NCBI GenBank assembly: GCA_032718475.1
Contig: JAUCBJ010008877.1
Coordinates: 1 to 64,000 of the forward strand
Direction: 5' to 3'
From: Nemertoderma westbladi
Lineage: Eukaryota; Animalia; Xenacoelomorpha
DNA: 64,000 nucleotides
Below, one piece after another: positions 13,386-64,000 of the stretch; the first letter of the stretch is position 1; every line of letters starts with the position of its first letter. Both the position numbers and the translations under genes were made by a program. The notes under the pieces are model-generated. The model worked only from the letters and a program-made list of their open reading frames with translations, did not search any database and was not told the DNA's origin.

Positions 13386-13603
13386 AAAAATGCAGAGGAA
13401 ATGTAATAATTACATGTTCAACATGTCTATTTTCTAGTAGAGCAAAAAAAAATTCAAAAAATGCGATTGTTAAATTGTTAAAATATTAATCCAAAATTTT
13501 ATACAAATTGTCTATTTTCTAGTAGAGCAAAAAAAAATTCAAAAAATGCTATTGTTAAAATATTAATCCAAAATTTTATACAAATTTAGGTGGTCGTTCA
13601 CAT

Positions 13604-38754: not shown

Positions 38755-38904
38755 AAGTTTTTAAGGCAAGTTCTCGAGGGTGGGAACACAGTAGGAATAC
38801 CATAGTTGGGGTATCCCAGTAACGTGGTTACCGGGATATTCAGCCATGACCGGGATAATTTTGATAAAATGGTAAGACAGTTTAAGGGATTGCAAATAAC
38901 TACA

Positions 38905-42348: not shown

Positions 42349-44811
42349 TATCAAATCTTCAATAAATATTATTCAATAAATTAAATACAGGTGGCAGTAG
42401 TTTTAGGTATGTCAAGCTCTTCACTAATATAAATTTCATGCGATGTAAATATAATAAATAGATGATATAAGGGCGTTCAAAAGTTGCATGTCGTGTAACG
42501 GAAAAGAGCAGGTTATACAGTACCGCTTTCAAACAACGTCGCATTGGATCCTAGTACAGGATCCAAGTCACTGATTCACTACTGTAGGAAAACTTTCAAT
42601 ACGTCAATATGCACTATCCGCCTAGAGTAGTAGTTTAAATTAGGGTTGAAACTGACAACCAAACGTAGTATTTGGGAAATTCGCAGGACCGAGCGATGAT
42701 GCAAAAACATACAACTTTAGAATGCCAACATCTCGGCAATTTCTTGATAGCATTCAAATGTTTTCACAGAGTTTAGAAATATTACTCACCCACATTAAAA
42801 TAGAAGCAACACCCGGTTTCATTTTTATAAGAATTTTTTTCTACCAGCATGTGACAGGGAAGAGGATACATTGAAACAGAGTCTGGGCTCCAGGGCCAAA
42901 TTAGCTAAAGGTAATTAAAAGAGAAACATTATAATTATAAATATGTACCTATCTTAACATTTTTACATCATCCAGCCGATCTCCTTACTCCAGGTATTGC
43001 TTGGTATATTTGCATTTTTCTATACGACAGTTCCTATGTAGCAAACTTCGCCTGCGTTTGAACTTAAGTAATTAACAGTAATTAATTACCGGTACCTAAT
43101 ATTTAAACAAAAACTCAAGTTCGCGTAGCTAATTATAAAACTGTAACCTGTAAAGCCCGTCGCTACAGACATTGTCAATACTGCTAACTTTGAAGGTCGT
43201 TTTCACTTGGTTGCTATGGTATTTTCAAAAAACTAAATATGCCATTAAATTCTTCAAATCAAAAATAGTAATCTTCCATAAATTTTAACTCATCATATCT
43301 ACAGATAATCTATAGGAGCTGTTGCTATGGCAGTTTCCCCTGTTGCTATGTTTAAGACTCTCTAAAAAACCAGTTCATCCATTTGGTGAAGTCAACCCGA
43401 TTTGTATATAATGTCCCATATCAGTATTAAACATCAATATGGGCTAGCTGAGTCGTATAAAAACACTTACGGGCCATAGGCTGGAGCCTGTATTACATAT
43501 AGAAACACCTAGATTTATAAACATTGAGGCAGAAAACAATAGTTCGACATATTTTTTCCGACGAAAATACGAAATTAAACATTGTAATATTTCCGTTGCT
43601 ATGTTAACCCAAGCGTGATGTTTAAATTTCAAAATAGATAACAATTCAACCAGTGAGTGTGTAGGAGTGTGGAATAATCCAACCGGTGTGGTATCGTTAG
43701 ACCGGAGCCAGATTTTTGCCGGAGCCGGAACCGGACCGGGTAAATTCCAAAAGTACCGGAGCCGGAACCGGATTCGGGTAAGTAATATTAAAGAAATATA
43801 TATTGAGGCCTGGTATGACTGTATGACCTACAGGCAGACAGGTACCAGTACCACTGTCATAATAGACTAACATACTAGTTATAATACTGTAATAGGACCT
43901 GGCATGTTGCAGTTAGTCCACTACACAGCTACATTTATTTAGCTTATTTAGTGAGCCAACTTCTGCACTTTCCTGCTTTCTGACTTTGTTTTTACTCATA
44001 AACCAGTACATTAGTCTGGTAGTTTTATTAGATATTAAACCTAACTGCCTAACAACAGAACAACGATGCAATAGACTGATAGAAGAATGGTTGATAGCAT
44101 CAGCCCAGTCTGCCAGTACTGCAGTAGATCTGTAGATGTAGAGGTATACTAATACCATGAATACTACTGTACTAGGCTAGTGACAGGCAGACAGGCTACA
44201 GGGCTAGACAGAGTTAGTAGGTAGTACAGTATGCAGTACTGTAGGTACTAGTGCAGTAGTGTACTGACTGCCTGTCTTTCAGTCTTTGTACTGTCTGACT
44301 GTTGTAGCCTCAGCCTGGCACCTGGCACCTGGTAGGCCAGTCAGCCAGTACTGAGTACAGCAGTAGGCAGTGTAACTGTACTATGCTGCCCCGGCCGACC
44401 AAATTATTAAGCGCGCCGCAGATTGAAATAATTAAATTTTGAAGAGCGCTGCTCAGCCACGCCAATTGCCAATGCAATTTCAACTTTGAAGGAGTGTAAC
44501 CAACCAGTCTGCAAATTTCAGTCAGTCAGTAGTACTGCTGTAGCTGCAGAACTGTCAGACTGTACAGCAGTACTGCAGTAACCATAACCATGCAACAGAA
44601 AAAAAGAAAGGCGAACGACTGAGCGAAGTGAGCCGAAATTTATAATCAGCTAATACTGTAATAATAATGTAATGTAATTTTTAAGGCAATTCCGTAATTG
44701 TTAAACCACTAAATCGGCGCCGGTTTTATTTTTGGGAGCGCCATGCGCCAAAACCGGCGCGCTTTACGATTTACTGGTATTGGACTGCTACTGCGGTAGG
44801 CTGGCAGGCAT

Positions 44812-46016
44812 TGTAAAAGCTTTTACTGAATTGTCCGGTTATTTTTCCGTATTTTTCCCGTAAAGTACTCTGTAGTTGATTTACCAGGCATAAAAAGGCC
44901 GTGTCCTTGCTGTACTGGTGTTTTAGCGGACATAAGAGCTATTTCTTCTGTATTTGTACTTTAGAGGACATAATCCGTAATTCCGTGACGTAAAAGCTCT
45001 ATACTCTTGAAAACAGTGTCGCTACCATGACGACAGCTAGCAGCTGATATTGCCACGTCGACGTTTCTTTGTTTCTCTGTTCTCTCGTTGTTCAGGTTGA
45101 CCAATCAGAGCGTTTGTTGTCTTTGTGTTGGAGGTATATACAGAAACTCAGTAGTTCGCAGTGTTATGTTTTTGCCCAGAGCCTAAGAACCGGCTTTGGC
45201 ACCTCCGTTTTTCAGTTTTTAGTCTTACACTAGTAGGTTTAATTATAAAGGGCATATATCCTTTAACTCATGGAATCACTGCTAACTGATCATACATACT
45301 GACTGCTGAAACATTGCAAACTCATAACAATCAGTGTTCAGTTGTTGTTTTATACTGCTATTTACTGTCAGTTCTTCATAATATGGTTGATGAATTATTA
45401 TATTTGGAATAACGATAAATAACCCCGAAACCCAATATTCTTGATATACTGAAGGTAAGAGAGAAAGGTTACCAGTAACGATTGTGACTTATGTTAAAGT
45501 GGTTTGAATTGAATCTAATGTTATTTGATAGACCCTACATGAGTCAGTCTGTGTTCCTTTTATATGTGACTAAAATCAGTGAAGATCGGCAGATTAGTGT
45601 GCAGTATTGTGCAGCATTGTGTATGAGTGAGTCTGTTAAAGAAGCATTCCTAAAGAATGCGCCATATATGTGAATTATAATTAAGCCATATCGTTGTGAG
45701 TAGTTTAAGCCATAACTCTGTTTATATAGATAAAGCGCCACGTCCTAAAGGAACTGTTAATATTCCCGAAGATAAATAATATTGTCAGAGATTATATAAT
45801 ACTGTCAGTCGAATAATACATTAGGCTTACATAGCAACAAAATTAAACCGTCGAACCCAATCTCCCGGGAATATCCAGCGGGTGAATGGTCGCGCACGGA
45901 TTGGTTTCGACTAGTGTAGTGAATCAAATACTTGTCATAGGCTAAAAAGCGATTTAATATTTAGAAGACATCTTAATTTGGCGGGTTAAACTGCCAAAGG
46001 TCTAAAAGCGCGAACA
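44812..46016 (+). repeat. 5' LTR (1205 bp)
   Basis: TGTAAAAGC...GCGAACA; CCAAT at 45101, TATATA near 45135, splice-donor-like AAG|GTAAGA at 45455. By eye it differs from the 3' LTR only by a 2-bp and a 1-bp indel. Confidence 0.97.
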
Positions 46017-46315
46017 TTAAAGGATATAGCTTCTTTGTTGCAGTAAGCAATAAAGTTGAAAGTACCGGTCAACCGGTAAACCTGAACCGGTACATTCTGT
46101 AGGTCAGTAGGCCTAACTGTTCTAACCGGTACTTCCGTATAAGTACACTAGTATTATTCGATTTGATTGTTGTATACCGGTAGGCTGTTTAGGGGATTAG
46201 GGATTGATCACCCCTTATTCCTTTATATGGTTTACTTATTTCTGTCAAGTTTTATTTATTTGTAGGCCAGTATTGAACAGAAGGCGTGTAAGCCTGATCA
46301 GATTGTACAGACGAT

Positions 46316-46880
46316 TTGTAGGCTGAGCTGTTGTCTGATTGCTGTTAAGTCCGAACGGATTGCAGTGTGTGTGTAGATCACCTGTCCGATTAAGTACGAT
46401 TAGGCAGTAGGGGCAGTGAACACTGTAAGGTAAACCCCCAACTAAAGAATAAGTCGCACTACTGGGTTAGAGCGCATACTCCCTAATCATTTCGGAGTCT
46501 GTATGTCCTGTAGTTTATTTAGGCTTGAGAGTAGTCTGCCATCGTTTAGTCTGTACTTTGTTTGTGTAAGTCTGTACGGGTAGCGTATAATTTTATTTAG
46601 ATAATTTGTAGGCTGGATAGTTGTCTGGCTGTTATTAGGTCTGAACGGATTGCCGCGTGTGTAGATCATCTGTCCGATTAAGTACGGTTAGGCAGTAGGG
46701 GCAGCGAACGCTGTAAGGTAAACCCCCAACTAAAGAATAAGTCGCACTACTGGGTTAGAGCGCATACTCCCTAATCATTTCGGAGTCTGCATATACCGTA
46801 GTTTGTTTAGGCTTGATAGTAGTCTGTCAGTGTTCGGTCTGTATTTTGTTTGAGTAGTTTGTACGCGTAGCGTAATATTT
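46316..46880 (+). repeat. ~288-bp tandem duplication in the 5' leader
   Basis: tttgtaggctg... at 46316 and 46606; core ggcagtagggg...cggagtctg near-identical in both copies. Confidence 0.85.
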
Positions 46881-48210: not shown

Positions 48211-48909
48211 ATGTCTGATACTAAGCAGAACCTGTCAGACAGTTTATTAGATGTAACCATCTGCGACTCAGATAGAGACGTACAACCATCTGGTCGTAAA
48301 TCCAGTTCACCTCCCACTGTGAGGAAGGTCATCCCTCCAGTAGTAATAACAGAACCTAGGCTGGTCCAACATCGTAGGTCTATCATAGGCACTCGAGCTC
48401 AGGTCAAGCGGGACCAAAAGGCAGCGGAACAGCAACAACCCGCTAGTCAAGAATTTATTCCTCAGCGGCCCAGCAGCTCCAGTAGTGAGGATACTGTAGA
48501 GCTGACACCCGAGAGCGGAGCAGAGAGGACGGATGCGGTTTATACGGATCCCCTTCTCATCCTTCCTGCAGCCGTGCTCGCTGGGTTATTGATCGCGGTG
48601 GAAGACAGTCAACGGTCAACTAGAGATAGCTACGCGGGATACACGAGTGAAGAACTGAAGTCTATTGTCGAGTCGCAATGGAACTTCCCCGGACCCGGAC
48701 TCCCGTTTGATTTATCGGAAGCTGCCTGGGAAGACATACACCGGATGGGAGTAGCCAAGGAAACCATCGATCCAGCTGTGTGGAAGAGGTCCGCAGCGGG
48801 ATACGCACAGGGATTCTTCAGCTCTATGGAGCGAATAGAAAAGCAACTTTTTCAACAACCTCAAGGACCTCAAGAGCAGGGATCGCTGCTTTATCAAGTA
48901 AGAGAATGA
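48211..48909 (+). CDS. 232-aa ORF, in frame with gag-pol and separated from it by a single TGA
   Basis: Same frame as the 48976 ORF; no other stop between 48909 and 48976; S/P/Q-rich with no recognised domain. Confidence 0.7.
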   Translation: MSDTKQNLSDSLLDVTICDSDRDVQPSGRKSSSPPTVRKVIPPVVITEPRLVQHRRSIIGTRAQVKRDQKAAEQQQPASQEFIPQRPSSSSSEDTVELTPESGAERTDAVYTDPLLILPAAVLAGLLIAVEDSQRSTRDSYAGYTSEELKSIVESQWNFPGPGLPFDLSEAAWEDIHRMGVAKETIDPAVWKRSAAGYAQGFFSSMERIEKQLFQQPQGPQEQGSLLYQVRE

Positions 48910-48975
48910 GTTCTGCGGATTAGGCTAATCTTATCCGCCTTTGAGGAGGCTTCTAAAAGAAAACAAGACACGTCG

Positions 48976-51900
48976 TTGCAAGTTGCCGTAAAGACTTGGT
49001 TTCAACGGGTGAGTCGCCAGGTTCAAGGAGCAGCTCAGTGGAAAGCTCAGTTGGAGGAGCGCTCAACCCATGGAGAATCGACGGAAGCTACTTTTTCCCA
49101 AGTGGAAAGTGAAGCGACGGCAGATAAACCGCATAAGAAGGATGCCATTGATATCTATCTGTCAGACTATCAGCGTTTTTTGGGAGATGAAGAGTTGAGG
49201 AGAAGGTTAGAGGGACTTAGCCCTAATAGCGAAGGAGCCAAACTAGTGTTAGATGCGATTGATGTGGATAGGTTAGCGGCGAACCAAGCTAAATTCGATG
49301 AACAACTCCGCATCGCTAGAGAACAAGAAGAACAAGTAAAGAAAAAACGTATAGAAGATAGAAAGACAACGGCAGTGGCAGCAGCAGTGGCAGCGGCAGA
49401 AGCCGAAAGAAAAGCGGCACTGGCAATGGCAGAGGCAGCGGCAGAAACCGAAAGAAAAGCGGCACTGGCAATGGCAGAGGCAGCGGCAGAAACCGAAAGA
49501 AAAGCGGCAGAAACCGAAAGAAAAGCGGCACTGGCAATAGCAGAGGCAGCGGCAGAAACCGAAAGAAAAGCGGCACTGGCAATAGCAGAGGCAGTGGTAG
49601 AAGCCGAACGGAGAGCATCTGAAGAGACAACCCAACTAGAGTTGGAAATTCTTCAAGAGAAGCAAGACAACTTCAATAAACAGTTAACAGCGAGCAATAT
49701 GCAAATGATGAGTCGATCTACTCCCAAGAGACAGGGGTATACATCATCTGAGGAAGGCGATACCACCGACACTGAAGGCGGAAGAAATCGATCTCGCCTA
49801 AGTAGACGTAAAAGAACATTCCACCGGCAGAAATTGCCTGATTTGCCTCCAGCTGTTAGAAGGCAACTAAATAACACCAAAGTAGGTAGTACAGAACCCA
49901 CAGACCAAATAATTACAATAGAGAGACTCCCTACTATAGTAGATGAGCCTGAAATAATTAGGCCTGTTCTTGAAATCACCCCTTCGGTGATAGACATACC
50001 TGTGCTCCCTGAGACTACCTCTAAATTCCCTTTGCATAGCACTAAGCTACCTGTGCCCCGTAGAACTGCCCCGGATACAGTTCAGGTCCTGGACCCCGAG
50101 CGAATTATTCATAATTTGTCGCCCGTTGTCCCTCGTCCGCCCGCTACGACGTTGGCGGATCCTGTTTCGGCGGTTGATTGGGTAGACGAGAGACGGCGGG
50201 GGATGGATATTCTCCTCGGAGAGATGAAGGAGAACCGGAGACTCTCCTCCCAACAGGTCCGAGAGTTGGAAGGGACTGTCCAACATTTAAAGGGAACAGT
50301 GAGGGAAAGCAAGTTAGAGTTGCAAGAAGTGCAGCAAAATATCGCGCTAGAGCGCGATAAATTAGTAAATTTACAAAAGGGTATACCACCACCCCCTGTA
50401 ACAATGTGTCAACCCGTTAGGTCTGAAGTATCTCATGCGCAAGGTGTGGAGCCTATACGCATTTATACTGCTAGCGAAGTAGAAACTCCTATAGTGAACC
50501 CTATTAAGGGTAATTATAGACCTGTTTGTAATGATATTCCCTATGGAACTGATCATAATCCGAGGAATTTATATACCGATACCTCGATATTAAATAGCAC
50601 GATGGCCCAAGAAAGTTTTACGCGTCAAATGGCTAGAACCGAAGCCCGGCAAGCGGTAAAGGTTGGAGAGATCGTCAAGTTCAATGGAGATGAGATGAAG
50701 TGGTTACCTTTTAATGAATATTACAAAGATAACATACAGAACTCTGTACTATCTAATGGAGAAAAACTTAGATACCTCATCGAGTGCTTGGAAGGATCTC
50801 CCAAGTTAATGGCGTTAAAGTTTATTGGACATCCAGACGGATTAAGACAAGTTTGGGATACACTAAACATCAGGTATGGTAATAGGAATAATATCGCTGG
50901 GTACTTGTATGCCAAGTTAGTAGCGCCCCGAAAGTTTATTAGTAGCGGAATTATCGAGTTTTCCGATGAGATCCAGGAGATCTGCAGACAATTAGATTGG
51001 CTAGGTAAGTCTCATGAGTATCAGAACACTATGGTTATTAGAGCAGTGGCTTCTACTTTACCTAAAGGTGGAGTAGGTACACGCTGGGATAAGAAAGTGT
51101 TATATATGATGGAACAACAACGGCGAGACCCTACCATGGCTGATCTCATGTCATTCCTGGATGGAGAAGTGAAATTACAGCTCCTGAAACTGTCTAGGGA
51201 GAAAACACCGGAAAACAAGGTAAGTGAAAAACCCGTCTCTAGAAGAAAAATAACCCCAGTATGTTATACCGATGACGGCGAAAGCCAGACTTCACAAGGA
51301 GAAGATAGCGGGAAGGACACGGATAGATCTTATTACGTGAATAAAATGCCTAAAGATCAGGTAAGTAAATTCAAGTCTCGAACAAATGACAGGAGAGAAC
51401 AAGTAAGAAAAACTCCTCCCACGTCTCCCAAGAGAATTCAGGTGAGAAAGCCCGAAGAAAAGGCAAGTGTACACAATGTGACTCAGAATAAGGTAAGTAA
51501 CATCAAACCAAAATGTGCGCTGTGTGACGGGACCCACTATTTGAATAGGTGTGATGAATTTCTAAAGAAATCATTAACGGAGAGACGCGAAGTCATGTGG
51601 GATAAGCGGTTATGTTATAATTGCCTCAGACAAGGACACCAACGGCGAACCTGTTTCTCTGACATAAGGTGTGCTAAGTGTGGTGCGAAACATCATATCT
51701 TGTTGCACGCTGAATTCGATCGAAATAGTCCGAATCAGGTAAGTGATTCCGAGCTACATGTCCAATTCAGTGATGTGAACGACACTGATCAATCTGAGAT
51801 GGAAGGATTCTATACAGACGAGTTCTCTGACGAAAACGAATCCTGTTACATGATAAATACCGTAGTGTATCGAGCACTCACATATGAGAAAGATACAGAG

Positions 51901-54900
51901 AACGACTTTACTCTAACTACTTCTGAACGACAACCACCTTGGAAAGAGACATCCTCCAATGTAGGGATCCGAGAGTTTCCTGTGGTGCAGGTAAGGGTTC
52001 ACGGACCTAAGAGGAGTTATGTAGTGAACGCCCTCCTGGACTCCGGCAGCACAGGAACATTCATCGATAAAGAGTTAGCCGAAGATATATTTGCTGGACA
52101 ACCCAAGTTCCAAACTAAGCTCAACATGTCAGGCATTATGCAAGTTTGGAAATCCACAATAACAGCTGATTATTATGTCGGAGCGTTGTCCACCCCCCAG
52201 GACGAACTAGGAGAACACAGCATAAGGTCAGTGAAAATGGTGGCTATAAAGAACTTCGCTACTACTCAAGCAGACCTTTATAATTGGGACGAGGATGAGA
52301 GCATCCAACATCTTAACATACCTCGATTTCAGACTGATTATCCTGGAGTGCAAATACTCATCGGCCAAAACGCGCATGAGGCGCTGGAGACGTTAGAGAA
52401 ACGGCCTGCTCAACCGCAGCCCCTGCAGACCTATGCGGTAAGAACTAGAGTAGGTTGGTACTTTACTGGCCCTTCCCGTAGAACACTCAGAGAAAGACTA
52501 CCGCCAGAGAGAGTCTACAAGGTGAGTGAATGGGAAGATGATGCTAGTGAGGGAGACGATTCAACTGAGGGAATTCCATACTCCTCAGATAACGACGATG
52601 TTCACCAGCTTTTTGATGAGGAGAATACCATCGATCTCCTTAAGGAAAACGAGGCTTGGCAAAATCAAGTTAACTTATGTCAACTTCTCTATCCATCTGA
52701 ACGAGAAGCTTATAACGACGAGTTAAATGACGTCATTGAGCGTCATAATGCCAAGATTAGGGATGAACATGCTGTACGATTCTTTACGCAAGAGGCGGTA
52801 GAGCCCAATTCCTACGATAAAGCCTTGTCGGTGGAAGAGGAAAGGGCCAAGCAGATCCAAGAGACAACTACATGTTTCCTCAAAGATCAAGGTAGGTATG
52901 AAGTCGGTTTACCTTTCCGCAAGAAAGAACCGAAGTTCATCAATAACAGACCTTTGGCGGAAAAAAGAATCGCGCAACTCCATCGACGCCTTACGGCTAA
53001 TTCTTCAGCGAAAGCCATGTATCAAACACAGCTAGAAAAATTTATTAATAAGGGATACGCGGAGAGAGTACCGGAAGAAACACCTGTGACTGAAAGAACG
53101 TATTATTTAACTCACCATTACGTTCCTAAACCCGGTAAACCCAATGAAGTGAGAGTAGTGTTTGATGGCTCCGCTCTTTACATGGGTCAATCCCTTAACT
53201 CTGAATTGTTACCCGGACCCAACTTACTTCAATCTTTGTTGGGAATTCTTTTAAGATTGAGACAATATTCGATTGCTTTCGCCTCCGATATAGAAGGTAT
53301 GTTCTTGCAAGTCAAAGTGTTGGATAGGGATCGAGATAGCTTACGATTTCTATGGTGGCCCGAAGGAGACCTCAACCAGAAACCGGTGGAGTACTGGATG
53401 ACCATCCAGGCCTTTGGGATAATCTCAAGCCCTTCCAACGCCTGTTCGGTAGTGCGTACTACTGCAGAGGACAACCGAGAGGCATTCTCTAAGGAAGTGA
53501 TCGACAACATCAAGAAAGATATATACATGGACGACAATCTGAAGTCCCTCCCATCAGTTGAGGAAGCCATTGAGGTCGCTAAGGGAACGGTAGAGTGCTT
53601 AAAAAGAGGTGGATTTCGATTAACCAAATTCACCAGCAACTCCCGTGAGTTTCTGGAGTCGATCCCTGCGGAAGATCGCGGAGCGAAAGATCTTGATTTG
53701 ATCAAAGATGATCTGCCAGAAACCAAGACACTCGGCTTGAAATGGGACACAGAGAGAGATATCCTGTTTTTCCAACTAAAACAGCGAGATAATCCTGTTC
53801 GAACCAAACGGATTTGCTTAAGTATACTGAGCACTTATTTCGATCCATTGGGATTTATTAGCCCAGTTATATTGATTGCTCGAAGTTTGGTACAACAAAT
53901 GTGGCTTGAAAACCACTCATGGGACGATCCACTTAAGGGGGAATTACTGAAGCAGTGGATGAAATGGGAAGATTCTCTACCGGCTATCGAGGAGTTTATA
54001 ATTTCCCGTTCATATTTTGGTCATGTTCTCCCTACGTATTCCTATCAACTCCATGTGTTTGGAGACGCCAGCGATATGGGAATCGGTATAGTAGCCTACC
54101 TAAGAGTGGAAACTCCGGATGGAATCAAAGTCGCCTTGGTTACTTCTAAGGCATTAATCAACAACAAGTTGAAAGTTCCTCGAGCGGAGTTAAAGGCGGC
54201 TCTATACGCTACAGGCATCGGCTGGAATGTAACCGAACAGATTGACTATCCATTAGAGAAAACTGTCTATTGGACCGACGCTTTACTCGTGTTAGAGTAT
54301 ATAACCAATGAAGTCTGTCAGTTCAGCGTCTTCGTTACCAACAGAGTAGCCATCATACTTAGTCGCACGACGATGGACCAATGGAGACATTGCCCCGGAA
54401 CGATTAATCCAGCAGACATCGCGTCCCGAGGAGCGACTCCAAAGGAATTGGTAAATACTCCTGAATGGTTAGGTGGACCCGACTTTCTCTACCGAGAAGA
54501 AGAAGAATGGCCACCCCATCTCACAACAGCAGAGATCAGACAAGCCAAGGGAGCGGAGAAAGTTAAACCCAAAACTCGAGCGAGTAAATCGAAGTTGTTT
54601 AAACCTGCGGTTGATCTATCTGTATTATTTACTTCCGGAGATGATGCTTTGGATCAGAAACCCACCGCCACGACCCCAGAAGTCTTGGAAATCCGTGACA
54701 AGGATTGGAAATCTGGAATACCAGATATCTCGCAAGGACTCTCACCTCTCTTGCAGAGAGCGATACGTCACTACAGTTCCTGGAATCGGCTCTGTAAAGC
54801 TGTTACCTATTTGAAACGATGTTTTCATCATCGTTACTCCGGAACAAAGACCAATAGTGATGATGCTCCATCAACATCTGCACGAGTCCATGTTATTAAA

Positions 54901-56409
54901 GATCTTCCTCAATACAAGATACCCGACAGGTTTCTAAAAGAAAAGATCAGTTACCAGGAGCATGATGAAACCAACAAACAAATGCTGAGACTCCTACAAT
55001 GCTATGAGGATTCCGATAAGTATTTCCTGTTGTTAAGAAATCCGCAGATGCGCTTAAGGGATCGCTTCTCTAGTACCATGATAGATGGGTTAATACGTGT
55101 TGGAGGTAGATTAACAAACGCCCCATTATCCTTTGACACTAAGTTTCCCATACTTATTAGAAATCTTGACATACAAATCAAGATAATTGTAGATGTTCAT
55201 AGCAAACTGTACCATGCGGGTAGAGAACGAGTTCTGAGCGAAATTCGAACTCGCTACTATTTTTATAAACCCCGTAGGGCTCTGAACCAAGTTCTTAGGA
55301 ACTGCATACCCTGTAGGAAAGCATTCAGTAGGCCTTTGACACAGCGAGAGGCAGAATTACCTAGGGAAAGAGTAAGCTTCTATGAACCACCCTTTACTAA
55401 TACCGGTGTGGATTTATTTGGCCCTATTGAAGTATATCGTGCCCGGACTATAGTCAAGAGATGGTGTGTCATCTTCATTTGTATGACTTGTAGAGCTATC
55501 CATCTCGATATGGTAAACGATCTATCCACCAACAGCTTCGTGTTGAGTTTACGACGACAGATCGCTCGCTTCGGAACCAGTAACACGATGAGATCGGATA
55601 AGGGAACGAACTTCATTGGCGCCAACAACGAAATTCAAGCTTACGTAAAGGACTGGAATAAAAGACAGGTGGACGATCAGCTAAGGATAACAGCGTCTAG
55701 CTGGACCTTCAACGCCGCCGACGCCCCTTGGTGGGGAGGAAGTTGGGAGAGATTGATTAGGAGCGTGAAGACTGCGTTCCACTTTATTGTGCCTTGTCGC
55801 GCTTATCTCACCGACGAACTATTGCGGACGTTAATGGAGGAAATCGCCGCCTATCTCAACGAAAGACCGCTTATGCCAGTCTCTTCAAATCCTGATTCCC
55901 TGGAAGCGCTAACACCCGCGCACTTTCTACTGAAGAAACCCGTAGCCATGCTCCCGCAATCGGAGATCACAGACGGAGACGAGTACTGCCGTCGAACCTG
56001 GCAACTTATGCAGTTGCTATCCCGTCGTTTCGCTGACCATTTTGAGAAACATTACCTGCCCACTCTACAACTTCGAACTAAGTGGTTTGCGCAGCAAGAA
56101 AACGTCAGCGCTGGAGACATGGTGCTTATTGTGGACCCCGATCTCCCACGTAAGCGATGGCAAACAGGACGTATCATCGAGACTTATATCTCGAGCGATG
56201 GTTTGGTGCGATCAGTAGAGCTCGTCGTCATGCGGCGGAACTTTAAGAAACCAGGGATAGTCTTTGAGACTCAACAGCTCAATCGCCCAGTGGGTCGTTT
56301 ATGTTTACTGGAAAGAGACAGAGAGCTCTCCGGAAACTATGGAAGGCAAGAAACTCTTCCCACGACCACTTCCCTAATACAACCGACATCTAGGGACTCC
56401 CCAACTTAA
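48976..56409 (+). CDS. BEL/Pao Gag-Pol polyprotein (2477 aa; ~2732 codons if joined to the upstream ORF)
   Basis: Coiled-coil AEAAAETERKAALA repeats; KFNGDEMKWLPF gag; three knuckles (CALC, CYNC, CAKC..HHILLH); LLDSGS; YYLTHH; SDIEGMF; IYMDD; FGDAS/PRAEL/WTDA; H..H..CIPC; GVDLFG/RSDKG/SWERL. All catalytic residues appear intact. Confidence 0.97.
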   Translation: MQVAVKTWFQRVSRQVQGAAQWKAQLEERSTHGESTEATFSQVESEATADKPHKKDAIDIYLSDYQRFLGDEELRRRLEGLSPNSEGAKLVLDAIDVDRLAANQAKFDEQLRIAREQEEQVKKKRIEDRKTTAVAAAVAAAEAERKAALAMAEAAAETERKAALAMAEAAAETERKAAETERKAALAIAEAAAETERKAALAIAEAVVEAERRASEETTQLELEILQEKQDNFNKQLTASNMQMMSRSTPKRQGYTSSEEGDTTDTEGGRNRSRLSRRKRTFHRQKLPDLPPAVRRQLNNTKVGSTEPTDQIITIERLPTIVDEPEIIRPVLEITPSVIDIPVLPETTSKFPLHSTKLPVPRRTAPDTVQVLDPERIIHNLSPVVPRPPATTLADPVSAVDWVDERRRGMDILLGEMKENRRLSSQQVRELEGTVQHLKGTVRESKLELQEVQQNIALERDKLVNLQKGIPPPPVTMCQPVRSEVSHAQGVEPIRIYTASEVETPIVNPIKGNYRPVCNDIPYGTDHNPRNLYTDTSILNSTMAQESFTRQMARTEARQAVKVGEIVKFNGDEMKWLPFNEYYKDNIQNSVLSNGEKLRYLIECLEGSPKLMALKFIGHPDGLRQVWDTLNIRYGNRNNIAGYLYAKLVAPRKFISSGIIEFSDEIQEICRQLDWLGKSHEYQNTMVIRAVASTLPKGGVGTRWDKKVLYMMEQQRRDPTMADLMSFLDGEVKLQLLKLSREKTPENKVSEKPVSRRKITPVCYTDDGESQTSQGEDSGKDTDRSYYVNKMPKDQVSKFKSRTNDRREQVRKTPPTSPKRIQVRKPEEKASVHNVTQNKVSNIKPKCALCDGTHYLNRCDEFLKKSLTERREVMWDKRLCYNCLRQGHQRRTCFSDIRCAKCGAKHHILLHAEFDRNSPNQVSDSELHVQFSDVNDTDQSEMEGFYTDEFSDENESCYMINTVVYRALTYEKDTENDFTLTTSERQPPWKETSSNVGIREFPVVQVRVHGPKRSYVVNALLDSGSTGTFIDKELAEDIFAGQPKFQTKLNMSGIMQVWKSTITADYYVGALSTPQDELGEHSIRSVKMVAIKNFATTQADLYNWDEDESIQHLNIPRFQTDYPGVQILIGQNAHEALETLEKRPAQPQPLQTYAVRTRVGWYFTGPSRRTLRERLPPERVYKVSEWEDDASEGDDSTEGIPYSSDNDDVHQLFDEENTIDLLKENEAWQNQVNLCQLLYPSEREAYNDELNDVIERHNAKIRDEHAVRFFTQEAVEPNSYDKALSVEEERAKQIQETTTCFLKDQGRYEVGLPFRKKEPKFINNRPLAEKRIAQLHRRLTANSSAKAMYQTQLEKFINKGYAERVPEETPVTERTYYLTHHYVPKPGKPNEVRVVFDGSALYMGQSLNSELLPGPNLLQSLLGILLRLRQYSIAFASDIEGMFLQVKVLDRDRDSLRFLWWPEGDLNQKPVEYWMTIQAFGIISSPSNACSVVRTTAEDNREAFSKEVIDNIKKDIYMDDNLKSLPSVEEAIEVAKGTVECLKRGGFRLTKFTSNSREFLESIPAEDRGAKDLDLIKDDLPETKTLGLKWDTERDILFFQLKQRDNPVRTKRICLSILSTYFDPLGFISPVILIARSLVQQMWLENHSWDDPLKGELLKQWMKWEDSLPAIEEFIISRSYFGHVLPTYSYQLHVFGDASDMGIGIVAYLRVETPDGIKVALVTSKALINNKLKVPRAELKAALYATGIGWNVTEQIDYPLEKTVYWTDALLVLEYITNEVCQFSVFVTNRVAIILSRTTMDQWRHCPGTINPADIASRGATPKELVNTPEWLGGPDFLYREEEEWPPHLTTAEIRQAKGAEKVKPKTRASKSKLFKPAVDLSVLFTSGDDALDQKPTATTPEVLEIRDKDWKSGIPDISQGLSPLLQRAIRHYSSWNRLCKAVTYLKRCFHHRYSGTKTNSDDAPSTSARVHVIKDLPQYKIPDRFLKEKISYQEHDETNKQMLRLLQCYEDSDKYFLLLRNPQMRLRDRFSSTMIDGLIRVGGRLTNAPLSFDTKFPILIRNLDIQIKIIVDVHSKLYHAGRERVLSEIRTRYYFYKPRRALNQVLRNCIPCRKAFSRPLTQREAELPRERVSFYEPPFTNTGVDLFGPIEVYRARTIVKRWCVIFICMTCRAIHLDMVNDLSTNSFVLSLRRQIARFGTSNTMRSDKGTNFIGANNEIQAYVKDWNKRQVDDQLRITASSWTFNAADAPWWGGSWERLIRSVKTAFHFIVPCRAYLTDELLRTLMEEIAAYLNERPLMPVSSNPDSLEALTPAHFLLKKPVAMLPQSEITDGDEYCRRTWQLMQLLSRRFADHFEKHYLPTLQLRTKWFAQQENVSAGDMVLIVDPDLPRKRWQTGRIIETYISSDGLVRSVELVVMRRNFKKPGIVFETQQLNRPVGRLCLLERDRELSGNYGRQETLPTTTSLIQPTSRDSPT

Positions 56410-57900
56410 TATCGTTCGGAGTGGGCGTGTGACTCTATTATTTTATATTATTTTATTATTTTTACATTTATGTATGTATTACTATGTAATTTTATTATAA
56501 TCGTTTTATTTAATTTAGTAGAATATTATTTAGCGATTATTTTGTAGAATAGTGCAATATATTCGTGTTTATTACGTACGTAATTACTTATATTATATTT
56601 AATGAGACGGCGAAGAAATAATTATTTTCTCTTTCCTTACTGTCCGTGTTATATTATAAATACGTAACTACAGTAAGATGAAATGTCCGTACTTATTAAA
56701 GTACAATAAAGCCACTACTATATTTTAGTATTATTGGTAGGCAGAGTATTAGGAATGCAAAGTTCAGATCCTCGTGTCTCGGCTAAACCAAGCTCTGGGT
56801 AGACCTTGGAAACGACTTGCCTCTTCACACTGACATTGCTTCGTGCGATATTGCTCTCATACCGTTAACGTCCCCAGACAAGTTCTGGAATAAATCGGTG
56901 CCCATCTCAAATATTAATTAGTTAATATTTACAAATCAAATAAGTCAAAATCTGTAAAATTCAGATCCTTCAACAATTCTAGTCAATTAAGATATCGTAG
57001 CATTTACCGATATTCTTAAAGAGACAATTTTCTTAGAATTAAGGATCTTGTGTCCCTAGACATGTTCTAGAATCCAAATATGCCCATTTAATTATCAAAT
57101 AATAAAATTTCAGGGAATAAATTTAAATTCATGTCTTTTAATGAATTTAATAAATTGCTATTTTACGCGATTTATAACATTCCCAAAAATTCCATTAATT
57201 AATAGATCAAGGGAGTGGAGATTTATATTATTATGCGTATGCGTGTACGAAAGTCTCCCAAATATAGTTAATAGCCGATAAAATTCGTAAAGTCATGTAT
57301 AAACAGGACATTGACTATTAAAGAATCCCTATTAAATAACATCCCAGATCTGTATGCATTGGAATTACTCTAATTCTACCGCTAGCTTTGCATAATGTCA
57401 CCATAGCAACAACCACGCTAGAATTAGAATTGAGTTAAACAAACAATAGAAAGCTTGTCCCATTGAATAACATAGGGAATAAATAGCGCACTACTAGTAT
57501 CCAAGGATACATAATAATACAGTGACATTCTGGAAAGCATTGACTAACGGACAAATGGCCCGAATGTGTGTAGTTGTGACCAGTTGTGTGGTATTTGTGA
57601 GTTTATAGGTGAATGTTACTGCTAAAGTGTGTTTACAGTAGCTAGTCGCAATCGTAAAATAACCTAACTCTCCAAGGAATACCTGAAGTACATCTAAGCC
57701 TTTGGGACGGACAGTGGAGTGACTTGTGTCGGTTATCGTTGTAGTTGTACGGCTACGTCGTTGGCGAAAGTACAGCTACAGCGGTACATTGGCGCTGAGA
57801 ATCTCTTACTGTCCGGGGGCAAGGGAGAAATAGGCAGCGACGCCCGCTCGCCTAACGATATATAAACTCATTATAATATTGGTGAACTTGTATAGCAGAT

Positions 57901-58299
57901 ATGACTGAATTAATAGAAGATGATCTTGGTATCAGGGAGAGATATACTCTACCTTTACAAGCGTTTGTCGATAGCTTGATACGCGGCGACGCTGATCCAA
58001 CTATTACGGAGGACGATGGTCGTTATATCGAACCGCCAATGTCCCAGGAGCAACTTACGCGTGAATTGGATTATAGGAAGTTCACTGCTCGCTACACGCA
58101 TCGTAATGGTACGTATATGGACTTCTTGACCACTGGTCATCCTATTGATTTACACGACACCGACGACGTAGACACCGAAAGGGAAATGGTTTTGTTTAAA
58201 TATCATGCCCAGCGGAGTCGAAACGATAAATCGAGAATGGAACACGAGAACTCTATTCGAAATCAGCTCGAAAGAAAGAACGTGGAAGAAGGCTTGTAA
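57901..58299 (+). CDS. 132-aa acidic accessory ORF of unknown function inside the BEL/Pao element
   Basis: ATG-initiated, protein-like composition in an otherwise AT-rich region; TATATAAA at ~57859 and a TAGCAG acceptor-like site just upstream. Confidence 0.55.
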   Translation: MTELIEDDLGIRERYTLPLQAFVDSLIRGDADPTITEDDGRYIEPPMSQEQLTRELDYRKFTARYTHRNGTYMDFLTTGHPIDLHDTDDVDTEREMVLFKYHAQRSRNDKSRMEHENSIRNQLERKNVEEGL

Positions 58300-59131
58300 A
58301 AACAAATATAGGCGAACCACTGGAGAAGAGACATATGTTAATGTCCAGGGTCCATAATGTGAATAGTTTTCCCCGGGGCACGGGTGCTCGCGGGCGGTCT
58401 CCTTCGGGAGGCTGTAAATTTCTCTTCCTTCATCGTTTTCCTGTAATTGTTGTGATCAGTGTCACAATTAAAAGACAAGAATGAATGATGACGTGATGGA
58501 AAACTTGTCCATTGTGGTGTCTTATGGATACTACCCTATATCTTCCTCCTCTTTACTCCCTTCATCGATCGACCAATCATAGTGGTATCGTGGTATGGAT
58601 CATACCTCATCCTAATAAATCTCCTCACCTTCTCTTCCCAACGCGCTCGGAGCTTCGGGAAACGAATACTAAACCTCCCAGCCCTTACTGTTCATCTGGA
58701 TGCTAATATTGGTGTCCGCACCTCCTGTCCATGTCATATTCTGTTGATATTTATGATATCAACTTCCACCCTCTCGTTCTTGATTAGGTAATCAAACACT
58801 TCCTAATTTCCTCAAGTCCACAACCGTGAAACAAGGACTGAAAGGACAAGCGGATAGTTTGTGAACAACTGGTACCATTATGTGTCATAAATCTGGTTGT
58901 TCACCTCCCTTAATGATTGGGGATATAAATCTTATGTAGAACAACTGAGGCAAACATATCTTTGAGCTGATGTTTACCTCATCACACTGGGGATAAATTC
59001 GGTTGGGGATAGTACTCGAATGTTACAATCCTCCTACTGAGATCTTATTTCTGAATATTTCAGAATGCGAAATAGTTTTTCCTCTGCTCTACCATCGCTG
59101 TCGGAGAACATATTAGGCATACAATGGGAAC

Positions 59132-60907
59132 ATGGAGAACATTCCATACCCTTTCGTTGATACTCAGCTGATTGCTCCTTGGGCCGAAGGCCGAGGTTTC
59201 TTTCGCACTATGTATGCCAATACACCCAGCGGTATTACTAAAGTACAACGGACATCCATCGGACATCTTGCTTTTCAAGAATATGGTTGTAATTTCAAAG
59301 TTGGAAATCCTATAAATTACCAGCAAGTATATGGAGATCATTACTCTCGTTTATATTTTGATGGACCATTAACTGCGCCTGGTGCCGTATATAGCTTTAT
59401 GAGTGTTCCCCTTCGCCCTTCCTTAGCTATATACACGATCTTTGAAAACGCAGCACTTGCCGGTTGGCTAGCCGATGTGTGCAGTCGTACCATACGCGCT
59501 CACCCGTTAATACTTGGAACTAAACTCGCCAAGTTAGACGAACACAATAAGTTCATACGTTTCGAATGTTTCCGGCGCTTTCTGACTCCGTTCCGTAACG
59601 TCGATAGTCAGTTCAAAGATCGCGCGCTGACCAAGCTCAGTCTTAGAGACTCAGCTGCGGAGAAACTGAGTAGCGCTGGATTTGCCGTGTTTCAAGACGT
59701 TTGTATACAGAACTCACATTCATCTGTTATACAAAGACCCCGAATACCTACAGGTTATTCTGTCGTGGAAATACAGACAGTGGGTCCACTTACGGAAACC
59801 GACGCACCCACTTCGTCTATGCAGCTGGAGGATGAACCAGTATGCTTGGAATCTGAAGCGATTCAACCTACGGCTTCTCGGAGCAGTGACAATGATTATG
59901 TCATAGAGTGGTATCAAGGTCCACAGCGTCTCACAGCGTACGATTATCGACACGCCAACTACGTTTCCCGAAAACGTTGTCGATTATGCGCATCGAGAGA
60001 CCACTTCACTCCTCTCGACTCGAGCGTACCTTGTTCCTATTTCCTCGAACAACCGATGATGGAAATATATTGTGCTTATTGCCGGCTTAATAACTCTCAT
60101 ATATTTGCCGTCTGCCCACAATTTATGACTCAATGTCACTACTGCCAACTTAAAGGACACGAAAGTTACAACTGTCCCTTTAATCGCGATTTAGAGAGCG
60201 TAGACGAGATGATCACCCTGCGATACATCCGAGCTTGGGAAGCGAACGCCGATTTACATTGCGAATCCCGACATCGCTATTACCCTGGACGAGCTTACGA
60301 GGGAGTTTACGCGTTCCATCCTTATCTATTCGCGTCGATTGAACAGAAAACACGCGTACCAAGTTATGAGTTAATGAAGCGTGTTGGTGAGTGTATTTCC
60401 ACCAAGTTTGTCAGGAAATACATGAGAAACGTTAATCCTAATGATATCACCACATATCATCTGATCAATTATATCCGTCAGGACCCTGAGTATGGCGACA
60501 TTTTCGTGAACTCGCATCCTGAACTCCAGGAAGTATCTCGACGCCCATATGAATATCGAACCAGAGAACGCGAGCTGGAGAGAACCATTAAACCGAGAAA
60601 GTTCCTCACCACTCACGGCCCACCCACCGCTAGTGTCCAGACGACCCGTCAAGGACCCGTAGGAGCTGCTGTCCTGAGACGCGCTCTAAAGGCCGTTAGA
60701 CCTCACTCCACTGAGGTTGATATTAATCAACCAGGTACCTCGACCGGCGGGTATACCGATCGTAACCCTGCACCTTCTGATGCAATTATATTGCACCCTT
60801 CGCCTAGGAGCTACAGCCCACCTCGTAAAGTGGCTCGCCCCAAAGAGAAAAGGACTCTTGCTAGCCTCAAGAAACTGCGTAAACGCCGTCCGCGCAAGAA
60901 AGACTAA
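59132..60907 (+). CDS. 591-aa accessory protein with three CCHC zinc motifs and a C-terminal NLS-like tail (env position, not Env)
   Basis: CX2CX4HX9C, CX2CX5HX4C, CX2CX4HX4C at aa 283-348; ends KKLRKRRPRKKD; no signal peptide or TM segment visible; stops 70 bp before the PPT. Confidence 0.85.
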   Translation: MENIPYPFVDTQLIAPWAEGRGFFRTMYANTPSGITKVQRTSIGHLAFQEYGCNFKVGNPINYQQVYGDHYSRLYFDGPLTAPGAVYSFMSVPLRPSLAIYTIFENAALAGWLADVCSRTIRAHPLILGTKLAKLDEHNKFIRFECFRRFLTPFRNVDSQFKDRALTKLSLRDSAAEKLSSAGFAVFQDVCIQNSHSSVIQRPRIPTGYSVVEIQTVGPLTETDAPTSSMQLEDEPVCLESEAIQPTASRSSDNDYVIEWYQGPQRLTAYDYRHANYVSRKRCRLCASRDHFTPLDSSVPCSYFLEQPMMEIYCAYCRLNNSHIFAVCPQFMTQCHYCQLKGHESYNCPFNRDLESVDEMITLRYIRAWEANADLHCESRHRYYPGRAYEGVYAFHPYLFASIEQKTRVPSYELMKRVGECISTKFVRKYMRNVNPNDITTYHLINYIRQDPEYGDIFVNSHPELQEVSRRPYEYRTRERELERTIKPRKFLTTHGPPTASVQTTRQGPVGAAVLRRALKAVRPHSTEVDINQPGTSTGGYTDRNPAPSDAIILHPSPRSYSPPRKVARPKEKRTLASLKKLRKRRPRKKD

Positions 60908-60985
60908 CTGTTTAGAGTATCTTTATGTTTTAGAAACTGTGATTTTTATATTTTATAGACTGAAAATCCCATTTTCTGGGAGCGG

Positions 60986-62187
60986 TGTAAAAGCTTTTAC
61001 TGAATTGTCCGGTTATTTTTCCGTATTTTTCCCGTAAAGTACTCTGTAGTTGATTTACCAGGCATAAAAAGGCCGTGTCCTTGCTGTACTGGTGTTTTAG
61101 CGGACATAAGAGCTATTTCTTCTGTATTTGTACTTTAGAGGACATAATCCGTAATTCCGTGACGTAAAAGCTCTATACTCTTGAAAACAGTGTCGCTACC
61201 ATGACGACAGCTAGCAGCTGATATTGCCACGTCGACGTTTCTTTGTTTCTCTGTTCTCTCGTTGTTCAGGTTGACCAATCAGAGCGTTTGTTGTCTTTGT
61301 GTTGGAGGTATATACAGAAACTCAGTAGTTCAGTGTTATGTTTTTGCCCAGAGCCTAAGAACCGGCTTTGCACCTCCGTTTTTCAGTTTTTAGTCTTACA
61401 CTAGTAGGTTTAATTATAAAGGGCATATATCCTTTAACTCATGGAATCACTGCTAACTGATCATACATACTGACTGCTGAAACATTGCAAACTCATAACA
61501 ATCAGTGTTCAGTTGTTGTTTTATACTGCTATTTACTGTCAGTTCTTCATAATATGGTTGATGAATTATTATATTTGGAATAACGATAAATAACCCCGAA
61601 ACCCAATATTCTTGATATACTGAAGGTAAGAGAGAAAGGTTACCAGTAACGATTGTGACTTATGTTAAAGTGGTTTGAATTGAATCTAATGTTATTTGAT
61701 AGACCCTACATGAGTCAGTCTGTGTTCCTTTTATATGTGACTAAAATCAGTGAAGATCGGCAGATTAGTGTGCAGTATTGTGCAGCATTGTGTATGAGTG
61801 AGTCTGTTAAAGAAGCATTCCTAAAGAATGCGCCATATATGTGAATTATAATTAAGCCATATCGTTGTGAGTAGTTTAAGCCATAACTCTGTTTATATAG
61901 ATAAAGCGCCACGTCCTAAAGGAACTGTTAATATTCCCGAAGATAAATAATATTGTCAGAGATTATATAATACTGTCAGTCGAATAATACATTAGGCTTA
62001 CATAGCAACAAAATTAAACCGTCGAACCCAATCTCCCGGGAATATCCAGCGGGTGAATGGTCGCGCACGGATTGGTTTCGACTAGTGTAGTGAATCAAAT
62101 ACTTGTCATAGGCTAAAAAGCGATTTAATATTTAGAAGACATCTTAATTTGGCGGGTTAAACTGCCAAAGGTCTAAAAGCGCGAACA
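60986..62187 (+). repeat. 3' LTR (1202 bp)
   Basis: Near-identical to 44812-46016; followed by TSD GGCAT. Confidence 0.97.
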
Positions 62188-62265
62188 GGCATACCGCGGT
62201 AAAACGAACTTAGATCCTGCAAGGCCTGACTTTGATGAACTTAGATCTTTCCGAACTTAGGTCCT

Positions 62266-64000
62266 ATGTATGCGAACGTAGATCCTATCTGGGTGAACTT
62301 AGATCCTACCTAGGTGAACTTAGATCCCACCTAGGTGAACTTAGATCCTAACTAGATGAACTTAGATCCCAGTTTATGCTATTAAAAGCTTTTGGTAATC
62401 ATCAAGCTAATCGCGAAGCGAAATTAGATCCCACGTTAAAGCAAAGCGAACTTAGTTAGATCTTAGGTGAACTTAGATCCCAATTTATACAAATAGAGAA
62501 GAAGCGAACTTAGATCCCATGTGTACTGTACGCTTAAAGTACAGTAGTTGCGTTCCCGACTGACTCACCAACCAACTACAATTTGCCAATTTAAAGCTAA
62601 ATTCGTTGCAATGTATTATTGTGGCTAAGTTCGCTTCCCTTGAAGCGCGTGATAATATTTACAGTAAGGTCTGCGGCTAGCCTATGGGAATGACATTTCA
62701 CTTCTAAGCTGATTTGTTAACTAGTCTGGGACTTCAAGTAGCACGTGAACAACTATGCTGACTGGTTAACTGGTCTAGGTCTTCAAGCAGCACGTGAACA
62801 AATAAACTGGCTGGTTACCTAGTCTGGGACTTCGAGCAGCAGGTGAACAACTAAACCAGCACTTTAACTAGTCTGGGGCTTCGAGCAGCACGTGAACAAC
62901 TAAACTGACTGGTTAACTAGTCTGGGACTTCCAGTAGCACGTGAACAACTAAGCTGACTGGTTAACAAGTCTGGGACTTCGAGCAGCACTTGAACAACTA
63001 AGCTGACTGGTTAACAAGTCTGGGACTTCGAGAAAAATTGCAAATTGAGGAGGGGGGCGATGTACCAGACTAGTTAACCAGACATGTACACTAGTTAACC
63101 AGTCAGCTTAGTTGTTCACGTGCTACTCGAAGTCCCAGACTAGTTGACCACTCAGCTTAGTTGTTCACGTGCTGTTCGAATTCCCAGACTTGTTAACCAG
63201 TCAGCTTAATTGTTCACGTGCTACTCGAAGTCCCAGACTAGTTGACCACTCCGCTTAGTTTTTTACGTGCCGCTCGAAGCCCCAGACTAGTTAACCTTCT
63301 ATCTCCCAGTGTTCCCAATTGGGAGCATTTTTATAAATTCAAGTGGAGGAAATTTAATATAGGCTTATATTACTTTTTTTAATGTTAATATGTTTAGGAA
63401 AAGTGGAATATTGTTTTTTATTTTCAACTTGAAGTGTTTTCAAACTTCAAGTTGGTCTTTTGGCAGGTCAATTTTGCCATTCTCATTTTTTTCGATTTTT
63501 GGGACATGCAAACAATAGTGGTCAAAAACGTTACAAATTTGATATTCCAAACCAGTGGCGACATTAAAATTAGACTTTTAAATAATACAGTCCCAATCCC
63601 AATAAGCATTAACTTGGTCATTTTGGCGGCCAAAATGACCGAAATGGCCAAATATAAATTGCGGCATTCATGAAAGGAACTTCTGAGGCAAGTTGGCTTG
63701 TCAATCACAGCCAGTGAATAGAGGCTGAGTGTAAGTAAAGCCCAGTATGTTGGCAGATAGAAAAAGGCTTCACCGGACATTCCCTCTCCAACCCCCCACC
63801 CGGACAGTTCCGTTCCGTTCGAGTAGGACACGTTTATTTTTCATCTTGTAAGGTAAACGGACCGCTTGTATCCAGACAAGTTTTACAGTATCCAATATCC
63901 CTTTATATTTTGCATCCCGATTTTACATTTTGTATCCAATTTTTATTTATGAATTTCATCAATTCAATTACACTGTATTGTTCGTTAATCTTTAAACAAT
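62266..64000 (+). repeat. Copy B of the repeat at 1925-3590
   Basis: Same GAACTTAGATCC array, 49-bp foldback arrays and flank; has a ~140-bp extra segment at ~63827-63966, after which similarity resumes to the window end. Confidence 0.9.

Follow-up and report, generated by a model that had tools for sequence, protein, structure and literature searches.

What could be encoded by a long open reading frame (ORF) that lies behind pol in a BEL/Pao retrotransposon and does not resemble an envelope (Env) protein? This question is raised by contig JAUCBJ010008877.1 of Nemertoderma westbladi (Xenacoelomorpha; assembly GCA_032718475.1), of which positions 1 to 64,000 of the forward strand were analysed and are referred to here as the window. 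Within these 64 kb lies a BEL/Pao element of 17,376 nt, near the 3' end of which stands ORF-B (protein P0001), a frame of 591 amino acids (aa) running from the ATG at 59132 to the TAA at 60907 on the + strand, as do all the features of the element described below. An initial annotation, made from the letters alone, had seen in it a non-Env, nucleic-acid-binding regulator of the nucleus. Our analysis indicates that ORF-B is a real gene of the element family under purifying selection and, as judged by its sequence, a member of an undescribed protein family, which very likely acts on RNA in some way. The reading that we prefer, with a probability of about 0.4, is that ORF-B binds the RNA of its own element in the nucleus and, in the manner of Rev or of the CERV protein from Caenorhabditis elegans, lets the unspliced full-length RNA leave.

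The ORF-B protein, its relatives and its diverged copies

Over its 591 codons, the frame of ORF-B is free of stops, whereas the other five frames hold 15 to 41 stops each, and the chance of 591 open codons at the local composition is about 2e-16. That an uninterrupted sense ORF of this length lies inside matched long terminal repeats (LTRs) was correctly recognised by the initial annotation. Its placement between pol and the polypurine tract has to be amended, since a second gene, ORF-A, intervenes in the 2.7 kb that separate the pol stop (56409) from the start of ORF-B, and since the tract before the 3' LTR is weak (60978-60985; 8 nt, 7 of them purines).

At the protein level, ORF-B is marked by three CCHC zinc knuckles (59978-60175; aa 283-348) with the spacings CX2CX4HX9C (aa 283-301), CX2CX5HX4C (314-328) and CX2CX4HX4C (335-348). 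The three motifs, already described from the letters, are borne out by the sequence as well as by a shuffle test, in which 20,000 shuffled versions of the protein never yielded three such motifs. They are followed by a post-knuckle segment (60176-60322; aa 349-397), predicted to be helical at low confidence, and, at the far end, by a basic C-terminal tail (60809-60904), a candidate nuclear localization signal (NLS) or arginine-rich RNA-binding motif, in which 15 Lys/Arg stand against 2 Asp/Glu over the last 32 aa. The strongly basic C-terminus and the lack of a transmembrane helix noted earlier both hold: the highest 19-residue hydropathy mean is 1.19, which leaves no transmembrane-like stretch, the absence of a signal peptide being judged from hydropathy only. 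With a single N-glycosylation sequon and no family match besides, ORF-B was rejected as an Env-like third ORF (ORF3), in agreement with its earlier description as non-Env. Structure predictions were of very low confidence (predicted local distance difference test 33 and 38), so that the globular-looking N-terminus of the initial annotation finds no confirmation in them, and a fold search with the second returned no match.

A HMMER scan of 1.84 billion protein representatives gave a single match to ORF-B, the 633-aa protein P0002 (E 2.4e-4). Weak when taken alone, this match becomes clear in the alignment, where the module made of the three knuckles and the post-knuckle segment is found twice in P0002, all 12 Cys/His ligands and the downstream E-x2-AD...R...G...F being kept in both repeats. 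For the post-knuckle part alone, the score against P0002 repeat 2 is reached by 0 of 2000 shuffles and that against repeat 1 by 866 of 2000. Because knuckles 1 and 2 of P0002 are canonical CX2CX4HX4C, the odd spacings of ORF-B are more simply seen as drifted knuckles of the retroviral nucleocapsid type; the likeness to Nanos that had been suggested finds no zf-nanos match in Pfam, either at E<=1 or at E<=10. No homolog of ORF-B was detected by word-indexed protein search, in the ESM Atlas, PDB sequences, NCBIfam or PHROGs, by exact look-up, or in the viral, metagenome and prokaryote contigs searched, and P0002 used as a query returned only itself. Since these collections are thin in animal transposons, such blank searches do not show rarity.

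The P0002 gene is intronless on a 3685-nt contig (L001), where it is followed on its 3' side by a purine tract with TG (2073), TATA (2872) and AATAAA (2905), by a 16-bp duplex pairing 2928-2943 with 3191-3206 across the CA at 3199-3200, and then by an acidic ORF that runs off the contig end. As this succession reads as a 3' ORF, an LTR, a self-priming site and the start of gag, P0002 is probably a retroelement 3' gene too, the region 2064-3685 holding one LTR-like copy only and the contig no pol. By language-model features, the N-terminus of P0002 is 3'-5' exonuclease-like (0.86), a lead only, which is without Pfam support and in which no first DEDD motif is obvious. The N-terminus of ORF-B was considered as a decayed exonuclease of this type: it has no Pfam match, and the score of its comparison with the P0002 N-terminus, reached by 39 to 1469 of 2000 shuffles over six settings, is not significant.

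When the module profile was compared with solved structures, the best matches were LIN28A (E 0.0014) and AIR2 (E 0.08-0.4), both limited to the knuckles and driven by their Cys/His spacing. On the strength of these tandem-knuckle matches, the nucleic-acid binding proposed in the initial annotation appears likely. ORF-B shares with LIN28 and AIR1-AIR2 (ZCCHC) closely spaced CCHC knuckles, but it has no LIN28-type cold-shock domain and its post-knuckle helical segment is not common to LIN28/AIR. Among the binding partners of LIN28 and the AIR/ZCCHC knuckle proteins are RNA and terminal transferases. In this context, ORF-B could be an anti-silencing factor, which would bind small RNAs, their precursors or nuclear surveillance factors and thereby shield the transcripts of the element from attack by PIWI-interacting RNAs (piRNAs) or the exosome. 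Besides the LIN28A and AIR2 matches, such a role would suit an element family that is multi-copy and young, and the pairing of the module in P0002 with an exonuclease-like domain that has no obvious first DEDD motif; according to excerpts of PMC5408684, DEDD derivatives that are inactive have a part in piRNA biogenesis. Nevertheless, the matches are weak and owe their scores to Cys/His spacing, and the cluster of splice donors in gag described below is left unexplained, so that we regard this alternative as unlikely.

The existence of ORF-B as a gene is further supported by its diverged copies, which were examined in four public runs over the stretch 57600-60905 only. The 3' region is present, whole or in part, in 7 of the 10 public runs listed, from four studies, and thousands of short contigs align across the stretch at 80-100% identity. 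Among the 40 best-supported of 616 differences, eight belong to ORF-B and each of them is at a third codon position; 7 of these 8 are synonymous against 28% expected (p 8e-4), a small sample selected by the tool for its support and not a dN/dS (nonsynonymous to synonymous rate ratio) estimate. Although 66% of the stretch is coding, only one of the 12 indels listed out of 33 affects coding DNA (p 6e-5), namely the insertion in run X4 that is taken up below. In the same line, among the 32 contig pieces listed (17,442 further ones exist), 17 of 18 are gap-free in ORF-B and 5 of 6 in ORF-A, compared to 2 of 8 in non-coding DNA, and the listed ORF-B pieces that differ by at least 10% are gap-free in 11 of 12 cases. 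Absence from other family copies and neutral drift, named in the initial annotation as grounds for giving up the gene, are thus not what was found: the frame is kept in diverged copies in all four runs, and both the frame and the selection signal hold in copies up to about 19% diverged. In one run (X3), the likeness of the diverged copies stops at 59127-59132, that is, at the ATG of ORF-B, as a gene that has a start of its own would lead one to expect. In three runs, ORF-B exceeds the spacer in contig depth by factors of 9, 10 and 114, which is a hint only, as depth does not equal copy number. Two further observations concern the make-up of the family. In run X4, a deep contig links the 3' part of ORF-A (58259) to a point just before the ORF-B knuckles (59877); it may stem from a copy with a deletion or from a subfamily that is arranged differently. 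Coverage peaks over the non-coding 57600-57900 and over the basic tail of ORF-B (60708-60905), possible cis elements of more subfamilies.

Triple knuckles are also found in Gag and in non-LTR ORF1 proteins, and ORF-B could on that account be a mere passenger, either a host gene that was captured or the Gag/ORF1 belonging to a nested element. This is largely refuted. ORF-B has no capsid or ORF1 family match, tblastn against every Gag in the window gave no match, and its knuckle spacing is unlike that of the BEL Gag array. The initial annotation had asked whether a nested Gag might be involved, but neither nested repeats nor a second target duplication are seen around ORF-B, and a passenger would hardly have kept its frame and selection in copies of about 19% divergence. 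A passenger origin is accordingly given only a very small chance.

Splice donors in gag and a proposed export of unspliced RNA

The gag-pol genes form one open frame of 2499 codons (48910-56409) that encodes a DUF1759 capsid region, a BEL-type triple Cys array, protease, reverse transcriptase, RNase H (Peptidase_A17), integrase and DUF5641. Within gag, five sites between 51217 and 52527 fit the 5' splice-site consensus perfectly, with their GT at 51220, 51361, 51493, 51739 and 52522. They are grouped about the nucleocapsid region and behind the protease, are all in codon phase 0, and are the only perfect matches in the window on either strand, none being found in ORF0 (an upstream frame described below), ORF-A, ORF-B or the four frames of the other retroelements of the window. 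Against these five, codon-order shuffles give a mean of 0.08 and synonymous shuffles one of 0.28, with 0 of 1000 of either kind reaching 5, and matches at 8 or more consensus positions amount to 12 in gag-pol where 1.8-2.8 are expected. Their common phase is partly forced, because GTAAGT in phase 2 makes a stop codon. In addition, a splice-donor-like site in the LTR (45455-45460; 8 of 9 consensus positions) is a candidate donor for subgenomic mRNAs, and the candidate acceptors ahead of ORF-A and ORF-B are moderate.

As perfect donors cluster in gag, the release of unspliced RNA by ORF-B gains an indirect argument. According to excerpts of PMC4380460 and PMC9074902, mRNAs that retain 5' splice-site motifs are hindered in their export in human cells. 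In the model that we favour, ORF-B and ORF-A would be made from subgenomic mRNAs, either spliced from the LTR or gag donors or internally started, while the gag donors left unused would keep the genomic RNA inside the nucleus or push it toward splicing by default. The ORF-B protein would then enter the nucleus by means of its basic tail and bind the genomic RNA of the element through its three zinc knuckles, thereby shifting the balance to export, so that unspliced RNA would escape splicing, retention and decay. The outcome would be a switch between spliced and full-length RNA. Such a model has a precedent in Cer1, a Ty3/Gypsy element of C. elegans, whose CERV protein is encoded in the env slot, made from a spliced mRNA and nuclear, bears a Cys-rich loop besides a candidate NLS, and is needed if the genomic RNA is to be exported (PMC10309623, excerpts). 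ORF-B likewise sits in the 3' slot, in an element that retains strong splice-site matches in its unspliced RNA, and its tail has the sequence features of a basic NLS or RNA-binding motif. The two proteins differ in that CERV has a C4-type loop and a G-protein-like domain where ORF-B has three CCHC knuckles, and in that CERV shares exons with Gag; Cer1 is a Gypsy and the present element a BEL/Pao, and no homology is shown between them.

The donors could also serve ORF-B in another way, as a last exon. In a spliced Gag fusion, one of the gag donors would be joined to the AG directly before the open frame (59117), to yield a capsid with alternative knuckles or a product with a CERV-like shared N-terminus. 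The five perfect donors in phase 0 and the AG at 59115-59116, which opens the ORF-B frame in phase 0, are compatible with such a fusion, and excerpts of PMC10309623 describe CERV as sharing its N-terminal exons with Gag. On the other hand, this AG has no adjacent pyrimidine tract and is not among the acceptor candidates, the phase of the donors is in part imposed by the stop codon that GTAAGT creates, and the diverged copies of run X3 lose their likeness at the ATG. In the light of these data, a Gag fusion is improbable.

Several points weigh against the release of unspliced RNA by ORF-B. The donor cluster may instead make a Gag-only mRNA by splicing, since a single gag-pol frame needs a way to over-make Gag, or it may provide U1 protection against early polyadenylation of a long transcript, and its link to ORF-B is seen in one element only. 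No sequence kinship of ORF-B to Rev or CERV was found, no direct comparison with CERV having been made, and patterns of the leucine-rich nuclear export signal type do not exceed chance in ORF-B (4 against a shuffle mean of 7). P0002 has no basic tail, and its N-terminus, if indeed exonuclease-like, would point more to RNA processing than to export. Finally, the selection test rests on the eight ORF-B sites that were best supported, and an insertion of 1 nt, directly past the third knuckle in a deep contig of run X4, shows that some copies are frameshifted.

ORF-A, putative self-priming and the structure of the element

Neither ORF-A, the gag donor cluster nor the self-priming site had been included in the initial account of the locus. 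ORF-A (57901-58299; 132 aa), located between pol and ORF-B, is a second conserved gene under strong purifying selection: of the 12 differences listed within the body of the frame, 11 are synonymous where 27% would be expected (p 5e-6), and two further listed ones hit its stop codon in few contigs. No homolog was found in Pfam, NCBIfam, PHROGs, PDB sequences or viral contigs, or by exact look-up. A TATA-like motif lies about 40 nt ahead of its ATG, and the non-coding stretch upstream of it (57600-57900), which many diverged copies cover with indels, is a candidate promoter or cis element.

This arrangement brings in the possibility that ORF-B activates transcription from the LTR or from an internal promoter, comparable to Tat or to the foamy-virus Tas, and would bind DNA or nascent RNA. 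Its basic tail, the TATA-like motifs upstream of both ORF-A and ORF-B, which permit internal promoters, and the conserved non-coding stretch 57600-57900 would suit such a function. CCHC knuckles of such spacing bind mostly single-stranded nucleic acid, and the LIN28A/AIR2 profile result fits this preference; moreover, no activation domain was identified in ORF-B. The chances of this alternative are small.

The second feature concerns the initiation of reverse transcription. The 12 nt after the 5' LTR (46017-46028), at the primer-binding position, do not begin with the TGG of a tRNA-type site, and are the exact complement of a candidate self-primer within the LTR (45255-45266). Among 14,958 internal 12-mers, this is the only one with its reverse complement in the LTR. 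Upstream, the pairing goes on as far as about 45245 through a bulge and G-U pairs; when tested as a 24-nt duplex, it gave -19.9 kcal/mol compared to -16.3 for the best other LTR site. It is predicted for RNA starts at 45244-45255 and absent for seven starts from 45140 to 45235, and a hairpin is predicted, in a two-strand fold, near the LTR 3' end directly before the primer site (45977-45998). The whole signature spans 45245-45266 and 46017-46039, and does not need removal of an intron. Thus, judged by the TGG start and by the LTR pairing, the element does not have the 18-nt primer site for tRNA-Arg or tRNA-Gly and instead resembles Tf1. Self-priming is known in Tf1/sushi, Tcn1 and TAR elements (PMC6317226, excerpts), in which the primer position is also complementary to the own LTR and not to a tRNA. 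These belong to Gypsy and Copia lineages, unlike the BEL/Pao element studied here, and the likeness concerns the element, not ORF-B. In the open full-text literature, as far as its excerpts go, we found no report of self-priming in BEL/Pao.

In this context, ORF-B could be a replication cofactor, namely a nucleocapsid-like chaperone packaged with Gag that would form or trim the self-primer duplex. Both in the ORF-B element and on L001, an LTR-like segment forms a duplex with the position that follows the LTR-like end, P0002 adds a 3'-5' exonuclease-like domain, and the knuckles are of the nucleocapsid type. However, the Gag of the element already carries three Cys arrays, the N-terminus of ORF-B is not significantly like the exonuclease-like domain, and the basic tail suits a nuclear role better. 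We consider such a cofactor quite unlikely.

Regarding the element as a whole, it is bounded by a 5-bp target-site duplication, GGCAT (44807-44811, partner 62188-62192), and by a TG...CA 5' LTR (44812-46016; 1205 nt) and a 3' LTR (60986-62187; 1202 nt). The two LTRs are 99.75% identical and the insertion is therefore young. Membership in BEL/Pao is indicated by an LTR within the 0.2-1.2 kb range with TG...CA ends and a target duplication, by the domain order protease, reverse transcriptase, RNase H, then integrase, and by Pfam matches above cut-off on pol (Peptidase_A17, E 3e-35; DUF5641, E 8e-19; DUF1759, E 3e-11), Integrase_H2C2 being matched as well. Its reverse transcriptase region is 33-37% identical to those of the two other BEL elements of the window, and no BEL pol was found in the viral contigs searched. 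Upstream of gag-pol and in frame with it lies ORF0 (48211-48909; 232 codons), without match in Pfam, NCBIfam or PHROG, a single TGA (48907-48909) dividing the two. A donor-like site (7/9) lies nine bases before this TGA, for which mutation, read-through and splicing are all conceivable. The N-terminus of Gag holds tandem repeats of 21-45 nt (49347-49658, + strand) that give an Ala/Glu-rich, coiled-coil-like stretch, and the 2.2-kb leader a 290-nt tandem duplication (46309-46856).

Around the element, the window contains two BEL/Pao and one Gypsy-type retroelement (8212-13437, 26815-30531 and 34331-38506), each with in-frame stops, and a C2H2 zinc-finger array gene or pseudogene with a tandem duplication (41092-42372 and 38902-41799). 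The BEL element was inserted just upstream of the second of two repeat copies (1925-3545 and 62232-63827), which hold 21-nt and 49-nt tandem arrays, the 49-nt array being in inverted orientation halves. Rfam and tRNA scans were empty.

ORF-B among the accessory genes of LTR elements

A non-Env accessory ORF in an LTR element is a known kind of gene; what appears undescribed is the ORF-B family itself, whose proposed function is deduced from its sequence. A small extra ORF is reportedly present in the nematode element Cer7. The bdelloid elements Juno and Vesta harbor non-Env ORF3s encoding a DEDDy exonuclease or a GDSL esterase (PMC5408684, excerpts), and non-Env 3' ORFs are also described in plant LTR elements (PMC7264820, excerpts). 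Excerpts of bioRxiv 10.1101/073510 mention a C. elegans element with an orphan 3' ORF. The bdelloid ORF3s and ORF-B are alike as extra sense, non-Env ORFs located 3' of pol, and the DEDDy ORF3 recalls the N-terminus of P0002, whose DEDDy-like character is a language-model lead only. ORF-B itself, unlike this bdelloid ORF3, has no detectable exonuclease domain. Furthermore, Juno and Vesta are not BEL/Pao, and the excerpts of PMC5408684 mention no triple-knuckle ORF3 and describe neutral variation within the genome. In the open full text, subscription papers and Repbase lying outside this scope, we came across neither a triple-knuckle ORF3 nor a pair of accessory genes reported for BEL/Pao; excerpts of PMC6238403, PMC8556966, PMC8220671, PMC3601003 and PMC6431247 held nothing relevant.

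The Belpaoviridae are described as elements of 4.2-10 kb with gag, pol and sometimes env, one to three genes in all, and an 18-nt tRNA-Arg or tRNA-Gly primer site (PMC8742986), and excerpts of PMC3118150 state that env is carried by few BEL/Pao elements. With the Belpaoviridae (Semotivirus), the present element shares the order of the pol domains, the single gag-pol frame, the 1.2-kb LTR and the 5-bp duplication, but it differs from them by its 17,376 nt, its two additional non-Env 3' genes and the lack of a tRNA-type primer site. It is possible, though rather doubtful, that it represents a complex BEL/Pao lineage in which a battery of gag donors holds the genomic RNA until a triple-knuckle protein of an undescribed family frees it, with a small gene helping and with tRNA-free priming, the module being doubled in a distant lineage and fused to an exonuclease-like domain.

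In published descriptions, BEL/Pao elements figure as simple, 4-10 kb long and built on the plan gag-pol(-env), with a replication that is "poorly understood" (PMC8742986), and the export of unspliced RNA has been worked out for few invertebrate LTR elements, CERV being among them. In this respect, the element offers a candidate trans factor as well as a candidate cis signal, both of them defined and fit for use in a simple reporter. Two selected non-Env genes, an unusual battery of donors and the lack of a tRNA primer site would together reveal retrovirus-like regulatory complexity in BEL/Pao.

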